From assembly GCF_003334405.1 (NCBI RefSeq), contig NZ_QOWM01000001.1: a stretch of DNA of 64,000 nucleotides; one strand, 5' to 3'. Shown piece after piece: positions 51,776 through 55,032 of this stretch. This DNA comes from Escherichia coli (GTDB lineage: Bacteria > Pseudomonadota > Gammaproteobacteria > Enterobacterales > Enterobacteriaceae). Position 1 is the stretch's first letter; each line of letters begins with the position of its first letter. The notes below the pieces were generated by a model. It saw only the letters and a program-made list of their open reading frames with translations, was not told the origin of the DNA and did no database searches. The position numbers and the translations under genes are program-made.

Positions 51776-51814
51776 GTAGACCTGATAAGACGCGCAAGCG
51801 TCGCATCAGGCAAC
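51776..51814. repeat. REP element
   Basis: gtagacctgataagacgcgcaagcgtcgcatcaggcaac between cysA and cysM. Confidence 0.6.
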
Positions 51815-51834: not shown

Positions 51835-52746
51835 GTGAGTACATTAGAACAAACAATAGGCAATACGCCTCTGGTGAAGTTGCAGCGAATGGGGCCGGAT
51901 AACGGCAGTGAAGTGTGGTTAAAACTGGAAGGCAATAACCCGGCAGGTTCGGTGAAAGATCGTGCGGCACTTTCGATGATCGTCGAGGCGGAAAAGCGCG
52001 GGGAAATTAAACCGGGTGATGTCTTAATCGAAGCCACCAGTGGTAACACCGGCATTGCGCTGGCAATGATTGCCGCGCTGAAAGGCTATCGCATGAAATT
52101 GCTGATGCCCGACAACATGAGCCAGGAACGCCGTGCGGCGATGCGTGCTTATGGTGCGGAACTGATTCTTGTCACCAAAGAGCAGGGCATGGAAGGTGCG
52201 CGCGATCTGGCGCTGGAGATGGCGAATCGTGGCGAAGGAAAGCTGCTCGATCAGTTCAATAATCCCGATAACCCTTATGCGCATTACACCACCACTGGGC
52301 CGGAAATCTGGCAGCAAACCGGCGGGCGCATCACTCATTTTGTCTCCAGCATGGGGACGACCGGCACTATCACCGGCGTCTCACGCTTTATGCGCGAACA
52401 ATCCAAACCGGTGACCATTGTCGGCCTGCAACCGGAAGAGGGCAGCAGCATTCCCGGCATTCGCCGCTGGCCTACGGAATATCTGCCGGGGATTTTCAAC
52501 GCTTCTCTGGTGGATGAGGTGCTGGATATTCATCAGCGCGATGCGGAAAACACCATGCGCGAACTGGCGGTGCGGGAAGGAATATTCTGTGGCGTCAGCT
52601 CCGGCGGCGCGGTTGCCGGAGCACTGCGGGTGGCAAAAGCTAACCCTGACGCGGTGGTGGTGGCGATCATCTGCGATCGTGGCGATCGCTACCTTTCTAC
52701 CGGGGTGTTTGGGGAAGAGCATTTTAGCCAGGGGGCGGGGATTTAA
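51835..52746 (+). CDS. cysM: Cysteine synthase B
   Basis: 303-aa PLP-enzyme product (M)STLEQTIGNTPLVKLQRMGPDNGSEVW...; start set at the GTG. Confidence 0.9.
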   Translation: MSTLEQTIGNTPLVKLQRMGPDNGSEVWLKLEGNNPAGSVKDRAALSMIVEAEKRGEIKPGDVLIEATSGNTGIALAMIAALKGYRMKLLMPDNMSQERRAAMRAYGAELILVTKEQGMEGARDLALEMANRGEGKLLDQFNNPDNPYAHYTTTGPEIWQQTGGRITHFVSSMGTTGTITGVSRFMREQSKPVTIVGLQPEEGSSIPGIRRWPTEYLPGIFNASLVDEVLDIHQRDAENTMRELAVREGIFCGVSSGGAVAGALRVAKANPDAVVVAIICDRGDRYLSTGVFGEEHFSQGAGI

Positions 52747-52785
52747 GGATTAATAGCATCGGAGACTGATGACAAACGCAAAACT

Positions 52786-52884
<99 letters not shown>

Positions 52885-52934
52885 TAAACAAAGCGCACTT
52901 TTTTAACAGTTGTTGCTGCCGACAAATGCAGTAT

Positions 52935-53669
52935 TTAATTTTCGTGAGGAAACGCCGTAAGGTCATCAATCATTTTTTGAAGTATTGGTGAGTCCTGACC
53001 GTCACCCCATTGAAGAATTTTTGCGGTAAGCTGATGACGCGCTAGTGCATTGAGTCCCATCTTTTTAAGTTTATGGGAGATTTTACCCATGACTTTAATC
53101 TGACCGAATGCAGTTGCGTAGGTAATCATATTGCTCTGGATAGTGCTCATTTCATCGACTAGTAATTGCGCACGAACATCCTCTTCAAGAATACTGTCCA
53201 TAGCGATGTATTTCATACCCCACATAGTTTCAATTAACATTTGAGGGAAATCAGCACAGTCCAGATCCGGCTCTTTACGGAGGCTATTTTCAAGAACGTT
53301 TAGAGCATCAGCACCTTCATCGCTGCCAAAAGGAGATTCTTCATCCCAGCAACACATATAAAGTGGATCAGTAAAATGGCACTGGAAGTTTGGGTGTGAC
53401 GTTTTAACATGTAACCCAATTTCTTCATCATCAAAATAGTAGCGATCCATGAAGTTAAACTTTGGATCTTCTTGATAGCCTTTCTTCATTTTTGCGGCAA
53501 TCAATTTACTGGCTTCTTTCAGACACTGTTCTTCATTATCGAACTCTTTTGTCTGGAATTTACCAATACTACCTACCTTGCCATAGTTGACAGCTAAACT
53601 ATCCCCTTCGTAATCTATCCACCAAAATTTATTCGATTTTTCATCGTGATAAATAAAGCGTTTTTTCAT
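52935..53669 (-). CDS. yfeS: WGR-domain protein YfeS
   Basis: 244-aa product MKKRFIYHDEKSNKFWWIDYEGDSLAVNYGKVGSIGKFQTK... (WGR-like N-terminus); AT-rich codon usage. Confidence 0.8.
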   Translation of the reverse strand: MKKRFIYHDEKSNKFWWIDYEGDSLAVNYGKVGSIGKFQTKEFDNEEQCLKEASKLIAAKMKKGYQEDPKFNFMDRYYFDDEEIGLHVKTSHPNFQCHFTDPLYMCCWDEESPFGSDEGADALNVLENSLRKEPDLDCADFPQMLIETMWGMKYIAMDSILEEDVRAQLLVDEMSTIQSNMITYATAFGQIKVMGKISHKLKKMGLNALARHQLTAKILQWGDGQDSPILQKMIDDLTAFPHEN

Positions 53670-53701
53670 GTTACCTCCTGTAAATGCCTTCCCAAAGCGG
53701 A

Positions 53702-54076
53702 TTAATTTCCTTCCGCAGGCACCGTTTTATCCGTCTGCGCAATTAACGCATGTAAAAAAGGCTGTGCGTTCTCATCGCTCTTACCGGGGATCTTCACAAT
53801 ATACGGCTTCCCAGTAATCGATGACGACGAAGCAACCTTATCAATAAACTGCTCGGCAGTGTCAATGCGGTTACGGGTATTGCCGAGCTTCAGACGCAGA
53901 TGAGAAACCGCTTCATAGCAGGTATGTTCATCACCGTTGCGCACAAATATCAAATCCTTTTTCTGTGCTAATCCCTCCAGCATGGCGTTGATGCGGGCTT
54001 CTTCATGGGCAGTTAACTTCGCGTAAACGGGGAGTGTCATTAGTAGTGTAATGACCAGACAAATGATTTTCTTCAT
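53702..54076 (-). CDS. yfeK: Secreted protein YfeK
   Basis: 124-aa ORF with an N-terminal signal peptide ([19 protein letters not shown]). Confidence 0.8.
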
Positions 54077-54101
54077 TGAATTACCTTATCCTTGTTTTGT
54101 G

Positions 54102-54144
<43 letters not shown>

Positions 54145-54180
54145 TTACGATGAGGATCATCGGCAAGGAGAAAAAATTAA

Positions 54181-55032
54181 ATGAGTAGTTTGTTGTTGTT
54201 TAACGATAAGAGTAGGGCACTGCAGGCGGATATCGTCGCCGTGCAGTCGCAGGTGGTTTACGGCAGCGTGGGCAACAGCATTGCCGTGCCTGCTATCAAA
54301 CAGAACGGCCTGAATGTCTTTGCCGTGCCGACGGTATTGCTGAGCAATACGCCGCATTATGACACTTTCTACGGTGGTGCGATTCCGGACGAATGGTTTA
54401 GCGGCTATTTGCGTGCGCTTCAGGAGCGTGATGCGCTGCGCCAACTTCGTGCTGTAACCACGGGCTATATGGGAACGGCATCGCAAATCAAAATCCTTGC
54501 CGAGTGGCTGACTGCGCTACGCAAAGACCATCCTGACCTATTGATCATGGTCGATCCGGTGATTGGCGATATTGATAGCGGAATTTATGTCAAACCTGAC
54601 CTTCCCGAAGCGTATCGACAATATTTACTGCCGCTGGCGCAGGGAATTACCCCCAATATCTTTGAGTTGGAAATCCTGACCGGTAAAAATTGCCGCGATC
54701 TCGACAGTGCCATTGCTGCCGCAAAAAGTCTGCTTTCAGACACATTAAAATGGGTGGTGGTTACCAGCGCCTCCGGTAATGAAGAAAATCAGGAGATGCA
54801 GGTTGTGGTGGTCACTGCCGACAGCGTGAATGTCATTTCCCATTCACGGGTAAAAACCGACCTGAAAGGGACTGGCGACCTGTTTTGTGCTCAGCTCATC
54901 AGTGGCTTGCTGAAAGGGAAGGCGTTAACCGATGCAGTGCACCGAGCGGGGTTGCGCGTACTGGAAGTGATGCGCTACACCCAGCAGCATGAGAGCGATG
55001 AATTGATTTTGCCGCCGCTGGCGGAAGCATAA
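54181..55032 (+). CDS. pdxK: Pyridoxal/pyridoxine/pyridoxamine kinase
   Basis: 283-aa ribokinase-family ORF. Confidence 0.9.

Follow-up and report, generated by a model that had tools for sequence, protein, structure and literature searches.

A 64,000-nucleotide stretch of the Escherichia coli contig NZ_QOWM01000001.1 (hereafter the window) carries yfeS, which is among the few E. coli K-12 genes still without an assigned function, next to yfeK. We identify yfeS as an accessory rather than a core gene of E. coli: a dispensable single-gene cassette that, with a bacterial interspersed mosaic element (BIME), fills a slot between the core genes yfeK and cysM. yfeS and the BIME form one presence/absence unit that alters the 3' end of yfeK. 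We propose that yfeS came from a donor of low guanine-plus-cytosine (GC) content and that its product is a stress-induced adaptor, and we give this explanation as a whole a probability of about 0.55. The part concerning the identity and evolution of yfeS is very probably correct; the mechanistic part, a stress-induced sensor or adaptor acting through a WGR domain, is tentative, and we lean against its being right. yfeS itself, its WGR domain, and its regulation by sigma-E were already known, and the accessory status, the anatomy of the cassette, and an uncurated C-terminal protein family are the additions. Taken together they clarify a known y-gene rather than constitute a discovery, and should not surprise a specialist.

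yfeS and a BIME form one strain-variable segment

The window comes from a chromosome of E. coli K-12 type, in which the genes follow one another as cysP-U-W-A-M, yfeS, yfeK, pdxK, crr, ptsI; from 52700 to 54200 it matches MG1655 and derivatives of that strain with 100% identity. The yfeS/yfeK pair is flanked by cysM (plus strand, ending at 52746) and pdxK (plus strand, starting at 54181), and both reading frames lie where the original prediction had placed them. The features of the locus are listed by position.

52748 to 53713, no strand: strain-variable segment of 966 bp, from junction alignment against four yfeS-less E. coli loci; same junctions in Pseudocitrobacter
52748 to 52755, plus strand: left copy of the 8-bp direct repeat GGATTAAT, 1 nt past the cysM stop codon; contains the palindrome ATTAAT
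52776 to 52891, no strand: BIME of BIME-1/RIP type, with a left repetitive extragenic palindrome (REP), an L motif of about 35 nt and a right REP
52902 to 52916, minus strand: marbox GCAACAACTGTTAAA in the interval from the yfeS stop codon to the BIME; exact match to a MarA site from chromatin immunoprecipitation sequencing (ChIP-seq)
52935 to 53669, minus strand: yfeS coding sequence, 244 residues, GC 0.392; RefSeq label 'yfeS: WGR domain-containing protein'
52938 to 53450, minus strand: C-terminal all-helical domain of YfeS, residues 74-244; acidic, with 11 invariant residues
53454 to 53669, minus strand: WGR domain of YfeS, residues 1-72, triad Y29-G30-K31, calculated pI 8.6
53674 to 53679, minus strand: yfeS Shine-Dalgarno AGGAGG, read from the sequence, inside the 32-nt yfeK-yfeS spacer
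53699 to 53706, plus strand: right copy of GGATTAAT; the TTA within it is the yfeK stop codon on the minus strand
53702 to 54076, minus strand: yfeK coding sequence, 124 residues, DUF5329 (PF17263, NF007646), with a Sec-type signal peptide at residues 1-19
54110 to 54135, minus strand: sigma-E-type promoter match AACTT-N16-TCAAA upstream of yfeK, from a pattern scan

When yfeS alone was megablasted against 5426 complete E. coli genomes, 1387 (25.6%) carried it, always as one chromosomal copy. The gene is thus neither universal nor housekeeping, being absent from 74% of complete E. coli genomes. Identity to the window's copy is at least 99% in 1223 genomes and 95-99% in 165; at least 80% of the length is covered in 1383 of the 1387 carriers, and the gene is annotated as intact in 28 of 30 sampled genomes. 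Broken copies include one split by IS1A in strain LR-03, a truncation in ET650, and fragments in Shigella flexneri.

Genomes without yfeS read cysM-yfeK-pdxK, with the convergent stop codons of cysM and yfeK 2 nt apart. At this position the 966-bp segment is exchanged for 7 nt (ATTATTG), in agreement with the 959-bp length difference between the alleles. The segment holds the BIME, the marbox, yfeS with its ribosome-binding site, and the stop and last three codons of yfeK (E-G-N); YfeK has 124 residues ending ...TVPAEGN in the yfeS+ allele and 122 ending ...TVPAQ in the empty one. No mobility gene lies in the segment. The 8-bp repeat GGATTAAT stands at both of its ends, and the ends in Pseudocitrobacter have ATTAAT alone in common. 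Recombination between the two copies of the repeat should leave a clean junction, but none of the 5426 E. coli genomes has it; over the full length of this predicted junction the best match, 93.2% identical, is the ordinary empty allele.

A plasmid-borne, mobile yfeS was considered and rejected: the 70% tblastn match on the E. coli 'plasmid' NZ_CP098226.1 is a misassembled, frameshift-ridden piece of chromosome. This 50-kb record (L006; PLSDB pZ0117EC0005-3) contains an error-rich copy of ptsI-crr-pdxK-yfeK-yfeS-cysM-cysA. In the empty allele, the 2 nt between the ends of cysM and yfeK leave no space for a terminator (L002 1545-1552; L091 3867-3874), and in Pseudocitrobacter cyperus the two ends overlap by 12 nt (L101 2861-2872).

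That a BIME directly adjoins yfeS had also been claimed, rightly: the element comprises an inverted REP pair (52801-52816 and 52848-52863, 94% complementary), matches to REP-derived Rfam models, naRNA4 among them, and an L motif, and its right REP is a hairpin by itself (52846-52891). A predicted core site for integration host factor (IHF), TCAATATATTG (TCAA-N4-TTG, minus strand), lies between the REPs in the L motif, within 52813-52849. The inverted REPs around this motif, the position between the convergent yfeS and cysM, and the many copies per genome resemble the BIME-1/RIP (REP-IHF-REP) class; owing to the BIME inside it, a query of 1.5 kb had matches at a median of 39 sites per E. coli genome. 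As in that class, the element is a target of IS1397, which is inserted in the yfeS-adjoining BIME of strain HYM1 (L005 1100-2449). Compared with other BIME-1/RIP copies it is ordinary, and only its membership in a presence/absence segment is notable.

The Rfam family ES036 (CssrF small RNA) matches 52807-52849 on the minus strand with 40.9 bits, above its gathering threshold of 37.6. The matched interval coincides exactly with the L-motif spacer that separates the REPs, so that a 'small RNA' family here falls on a repeat module. A further REP-like element lies in the cysA-cysM spacer (51780-51812, minus strand; naRNA4, 34.1 bits, below the gathering score).

The marbox is identical to a published MarA ChIP-seq site that is listed as yfeS><cysM in enterotoxigenic E. 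coli H10407 (PMC5684230). Because it lies inside the strain-variable segment, three quarters of E. coli strains lack it.

yfeS is the compositional outlier of the window

We compared yfeS with the 56 non-overlapping long open reading frames (ORFs) of the window. Its GC content is 0.392 against a mean of 0.536 (standard deviation 0.038), about -3.8 standard deviations, and its GC at third codon positions (GC3) is 0.367 against 0.587 (0.061), about -3.6; both values are the lowest of the 56, which bears out the earlier impression of a visibly AT-rich gene. In 300-bp sliding windows the GC profile dips to 0.36-0.43 across yfeS only. Codon adaptation, scored on the window's own genes, is low-normal (0.626; mean 0.681, standard deviation 0.047), and the anomaly is therefore one of base composition, not of codon adaptation: GC and GC3 fall outside the normal range, but codon usage by this score does not. 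The view that yfeS and yfeK are together the most foreign-looking genes of the window stands for yfeS, its one compositional outlier, but not for yfeK, a vertically inherited core gene whose GC (0.464) and GC3 (0.512) are low yet inside the window's range.

The cassette is shared with Pseudocitrobacter

Both alleles recur in Pseudocitrobacter. The occupied allele reads yfeK(...AEGN)-yfeS-BIME-cysM (L089, L009), and the empty one reads yfeK(...PAQ), 2 nt, cysM (L091), with junctions as in E. coli. Between K-12 and Pseudocitrobacter, synonymous divergence (dS) is 0.12-0.19 for yfeS, compared with 1.1-1.27 for yfeK, 0.45-0.55 for cysM, 0.59 for crr, and 0.47 for ptsI. Since dS of yfeS is far below that of its neighbours, the cassette was shared between the genera after its flanks had diverged. 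The ratio of nonsynonymous to synonymous divergence (dN/dS) is 0.13-0.20 in the same comparison, a low value that indicates purifying selection on yfeS.

A third enteric lineage, represented by a 1.1-kb contig (L096), has a YfeS that is 64% identical, at the yfeK-cysM position, without the BIME and with a GC of 0.385. In a neighbour-joining tree it is the sister of E. coli YfeS, and this placement together with the shared position suggests a single old entry into the slot. The three enteric copies (L096 211-945; L089 3909-4643; window 52935-53669) have GC contents of 0.385-0.40 and differ by up to 36% in protein sequence.

Elsewhere among enterics the slot is filled differently. It contains a SnoaL_3/DUF4440 gene in Klebsiella (L093 3898-4293) and an unrelated 116-residue ORF in Salmonella (L095 3876-4226), and in Enterobacter (L100) a DsbA-like gene and pdxK separate yfeK from cysM.

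Homologues point to a probable low-GC donor

In a collection of 5.8 billion proteins, identity to YfeS is about 90% in Escherichia and Shigella, then 65% in the third enteric lineage; the next relatives, in Paenibacillus, Dysgonomonas, Lysinibacillus, Clostridium, and others, are at most 58% identical. A search of 100,044 species, each represented by a single genome, gave a similar picture in its best 80 matches: the close matches were only a Pseudocitrobacter metagenome-assembled genome and an Escherichia sp., with no other Enterobacteriaceae among the 80, and the others, at most 58% identical, came from Paenibacillus, Bacteroides, Dysgonomonas, Bacillus, clostridia, Neisseria, Fusobacterium, and a few more. 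The nearest outgroups are Firmicutes and Bacteroidota, not Proteobacteria.

At 76 loci the GC of yfeS homologues, 0.26 to 0.64, follows that of the host and lies a median of 0.026 below it, whereas the enteric copy falls short by 0.128; in the relatives nearest by sequence the gene GC is 0.32-0.40, like that of yfeS. A large deficit in the enteric copy while homologues elsewhere follow their hosts supports a low-GC donor, and the behaviour of homologues in other phyla shows that nothing in the protein itself demands a low GC.

A phage origin was rejected. A phage collection yields four short 'Listeria phage' records only, with 31-33% identity in the C-terminal domain, and PHROGs matches the WGR part only, with nothing for six stand-alone C-terminal-domain proteins. 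In Neisseria, the YfeS homologue and three small uncharacterised ORFs (161, 210, and 198 residues) lie between gatC and gatA (L044 5131-9626), an arrangement kept in at least five of six Neisseria loci.

YfeS joins a WGR domain to an uncurated helical domain

The original prediction of a WGR-like N-terminus followed by an uncharacterised C-terminal domain proved correct on both counts. Pfam places WGR (PF05406) at residues 9-71 (E = 1.2e-17, 64.2 bits, model positions 11-78 of 79) and no other domain on YfeS, and the WGR assignment is recovered by profile and by fold comparison, in which it is superimposable on solved WGR domains. The signature aligns to Y29-G30-K31, where G30 is invariant, K31 is at least 90% conserved, and distant homologues have F or W in the aromatic position. 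The aromatic-Gly-basic triad is conserved across the YfeS family, and its Y-G-K form in place of W-G-R reads as a conservative change.

The C-terminal domain is without a Pfam family or a relative in the Protein Data Bank. An AlphaFold2 model built on 53 homologues (pLDDT 96.2, pTM 0.92) packs the sheet-plus-helix of the WGR domain (residues 1-62) on a confidently predicted all-helical domain with helices between residues 93 and 239, and these scores argue for a fixed arrangement of the two domains in the modelled protein. Eleven residues of the C-terminal domain are invariant (G85, T90, H92, Y104, P113, G115, D117, G119, D121, K192, G195), and 19 over the whole two-domain architecture are kept across phyla. 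The domains differ in charge, the WGR domain having a pI of 8.6 and the C-terminal domain a pI of 4.57 and a charge of -15.

Comparison with known WGR proteins delimits the family. PARP1, PARP2, and PARP3 have the WGR domain (PF05406) in common with YfeS, which lacks the catalytic (ART) and regulatory helical domains of poly(ADP-ribose) polymerases (PARPs) and is not a member of that family. In the structural-genomics entry 2ra8, a WGR protein of Bacteroides fragilis with leucine-rich repeats (LRR), the likeness to YfeS stops at about residue 70, beyond which the C-terminal module differs; plasmid annotation names such proteins the STM4015 family. E. coli MolR-type proteins (WGR plus DUF4132) have an N-terminal WGR that is 44-47% identical to YfeS over residues 3-74 and no detectable similarity beyond it. 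Stand-alone YfeS C-terminal-domain proteins are often labelled 'MolR family' in databases, and the associated term 'molybdate regulator' is an old annotation carried over from MolR, not evidence of function.

Searched against 1.84 billion proteins, a profile of the C-terminal domain retrieves 785 representative clusters; many are proteins of 165-210 residues in which the domain stands alone. In 26 longer homologues the companion Pfam domains are WGR (12), DUF4253 (3), and DUF4240 (1), and one protein of 821 residues has the order DUF4240-WGR-YfeS_C-DUF4253. The C-terminal two thirds of YfeS are therefore a widespread domain outside the curated libraries, with DUF4253 and DUF4240 as recurrent partners, which, like the accessory status and the travel of the gene with a BIME and a changed yfeK 3' end, adds to the present annotation.

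Gene neighbourhoods were collected as ORFs within 3.5 kb of yfeS homologues and clustered over 80 loci. The homologues are patchily spread, as single cassettes among unrelated genes. No partner gene is conserved across genera; neighbours are kept within genera only, and a conserved operon partner was rejected for these loci. Scanning 50 same-strand neighbours identified DUF4253 (2), DUF4272 (2), DUF4303, DUF4241, and ankyrin repeats and no toxin, secretion, or mobility domain; in two scanned loci, including a Paenibacillus locus (L010), the DUF4253 gene lies directly 3' of the yfeS homologue. NCBIfam named two of ten sampled neighbours, one as TrpC and one by acetyltransferase models, the latter below their cut-offs.

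Published work puts yfeS with yfeK under sigma-E

Published work treats yfeK-yfeS as one sigma-E-dependent operon (PMC2685091, PMC3326320), and an in vitro assay of sigma-E promoters included that of yfeK (PMC3326320). Taking GGAACTT-N16-TCAAA as the reference promoter type, we found no match to the strict pattern GAACTT-N15-17-TCAAA in the 64-kb window. The relaxed pattern AACTT-N16-TCAAA has its sole match upstream of yfeK, which is weak alone since about 0.4 matches are expected by chance. For yfeS no promoter of its own is detectable; it has a strong ribosome-binding site 32 nt after yfeK, and a scan of the 32-nt spacer found no terminator-like site.

Both genes respond to stress. They rise with rpoE after the chromosome damage that follows loss of a restriction-modification system (PMC2685091), and a jammed autotransporter, which causes secretion stress, induces them (PMC6850105). 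Over-expressed yfeK halts growth and over-expressed yfeS does not (PMC2685091). The Keio deletion of yfeS lowers the minimal inhibitory concentration of boric acid from 100 to 45-50 mM, and complementation restores it in part, to 65 mM (PMC11502571). Other bacterial WGR proteins are reported to belong to DNA-damage regulons, DR2173 under DdrO and MolR under LexA.

A proposed history and role for yfeS

We propose that an ancestral enterobacterium acquired yfeS from a donor of low GC, and that Escherichia and Pseudocitrobacter have since retained, lost, or exchanged it as a presence/absence allele. According to the published transcriptomes it would be transcribed from the sigma-E promoter of yfeK, and because it rides on that promoter, YfeS would be made during envelope stress. 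The protein is probably cytoplasmic, with a mildly basic WGR domain packed on an acidic domain of six predicted helices that carries an invariant polar cluster (T90/H92, D117/D121, K192). By analogy with PARP1-3, the WGR domain may recognise a nucleic-acid end or a related polyanion and pass the signal to the helical domain, which could bind another protein or serve as the output module. On this view YfeS would be a small sensor or adaptor induced by stress rather than an enzyme of central metabolism. Should bacterial WGR proteins prove to sense the ends of nucleic acids, like PARPs, then K-12 would offer in YfeS a minimal and tractable model, with a mutant phenotype (boric acid sensitivity) and an inducing signal (sigma-E).

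Several points weigh against this proposal. No ligand has been demonstrated for the WGR domain of YfeS or of other bacterial WGR proteins. YfeS as a whole is acidic (pI 4.98) and its WGR domain only weakly basic. The C-terminal domain resembles neither the PARP helical (HD) domain nor solved structures, which limits the PARP analogy to the WGR domain, and since no partner gene is conserved over the 80 loci, the neighbourhoods give no clue to the output of YfeS. The boric acid phenotype is only partly complemented and may in part reflect transcription that runs on from the resistance cassette into cysM, the convergent gene. With regard to history, the recombination junction that would give the direction of the insertion or deletion is missing from the 5426 genomes, and AT-richness kept in three diverged enterobacterial lineages is odd for an old resident.

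Alternative explanations

The main rival reading assigns YfeS to inter-bacterial conflict, as an orphan protein of immunity type or a decoy. Its acidic helical domain would bind an incoming toxin, most likely one directed at nucleic acids, and render it harmless, and the cassette would spread by protecting against competitors. Its patchy, cross-phylum spread as a lone cassette among unrelated genes fits this account, as do the strongly acidic charge of the C-terminal domain, the occurrence of that domain alone or shuffled with WGR, DUF4253, and DUF4240, and the harmlessness of yfeS over-expression (PMC2685091). So do the same-strand neighbours with DUF4253, DUF4272, DUF4303, DUF4241, and ankyrin repeats, for a 2026 preprint predicts DUF4303 and LRR proteins as cognate immunities of Rhs toxins, and fusions of WGR to YwqG, a family associated with polymorphic toxin systems, are on record (PMC4275035). 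Yet the link from these DUF families to immunity is itself largely predicted, and the 50 scanned neighbours contain no toxin domain or secretion-system marker. YfeS has no match to an Imm or SUKH family in Pfam; the sole trace is in one homologue, whose fusion partner weakly matches Imm26 (E = 0.15). Sigma-E control beside a periplasmic protein is atypical for an immunity gene. PADLOC gives no match for YfeS or YfeK at E <= 1, and a known defence system was rejected on that ground. On this balance we regard an immunity function as fairly unlikely.

A broader idea places the YfeS C-terminal family, WGR, DUF4253, and DUF4240 in a guild of shuffled mobile conflict cassettes, concerned with nucleic-acid sensing or toxin neutralisation, of which one became wired into the sigma-E regulon and persists as a polymorphism shared by Escherichia and Pseudocitrobacter. 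We offer it as speculation that would probably not survive scrutiny.

The history of yfeS could also be the reverse of the one that we favour. As an ancestral enterobacterial gene it would have been inherited vertically and deleted repeatedly, its AT-richness stemming from amino-acid content, weak expression, or selection. The equally low-GC orthologue at the same locus of the third enteric lineage, and the presence of both alleles in two genera, would be expected of such a gene. The YfeK of yfeS+ strains (124 residues, ...AEGN) is moreover nearer to the Klebsiella forms (124 residues, ...AESQ or ...AENQ) than the empty-site form (...PAQ) is, and the BIME, as an enterobacterial element, implies long residence. 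But Salmonella and Klebsiella have the slot without yfeS, Enterobacter has a different gene order, and the best 80 matches from the species genomes add no further Enterobacteriaceae. The composition is not a property of the protein, the between-genus dS of yfeS is far below that of its neighbours, and the nearest outgroups lie in other phyla. Vertical descent from the enterobacterial ancestor thus seems improbable to us, and entry from a low-GC donor accounts for yfeS better.

That yfeS is a decaying, functionless passenger hitch-hiking in some lineages, as might be read from the three quarters of E. coli that live without it and from the copies broken in LR-03, ET650, and Shigella flexneri, is very improbable given its dN/dS (0.13-0.23), the coverage of at least 80% of its length in almost all carriers, the architecture and 19 invariant residues kept across phyla, and a deletion phenotype that is partly complemented.

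yfeK and the crr-cysM interval

In contrast to yfeS, yfeK belongs to the core genes of the Enterobacteriaceae and has descended vertically. Its product matches DUF5329 (PF17263) at E = 5.6e-31 and the NCBIfam equivalog NF007646 over its full length (276.7 bits against a cut-off of 171). Its tail depends on the allele, ending ...PAEGN with yfeS and ...PAQ without it. Orthologues in Pseudocitrobacter, Klebsiella, Superficieibacter, Salmonella, and Enterobacter are 70-85% identical. The description of YfeK as a small secreted protein agrees with its 124 residues and with an N-terminus that, by inspection, looks like a Sec signal peptide (predicted at residues 1-19). In one O157:H7 genome (NE 1169-1; L001 1550-1917) yfeK is annotated as a frameshifted pseudogene.

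A second DUF5329/YfeK-like gene occurs in a different context on a Citrobacter/Salmonella-type contig (L099 954-2866), where it adjoins a weak match to Tli4_C, a type VI secretion system lipase immunity domain, near a large helicase/PLD-type gene.

Across enteric genera the crr-cysM interval is a hot spot of rearrangement. The SnoaL_3/DUF4440 gene that lies behind yfeK in Klebsiella lies ahead of it in Pseudocitrobacter (L089/L091 314-3388), and in the upstream part of the interval an EAL gene, or GntR-aminotransferase and GATase genes, are variably present.

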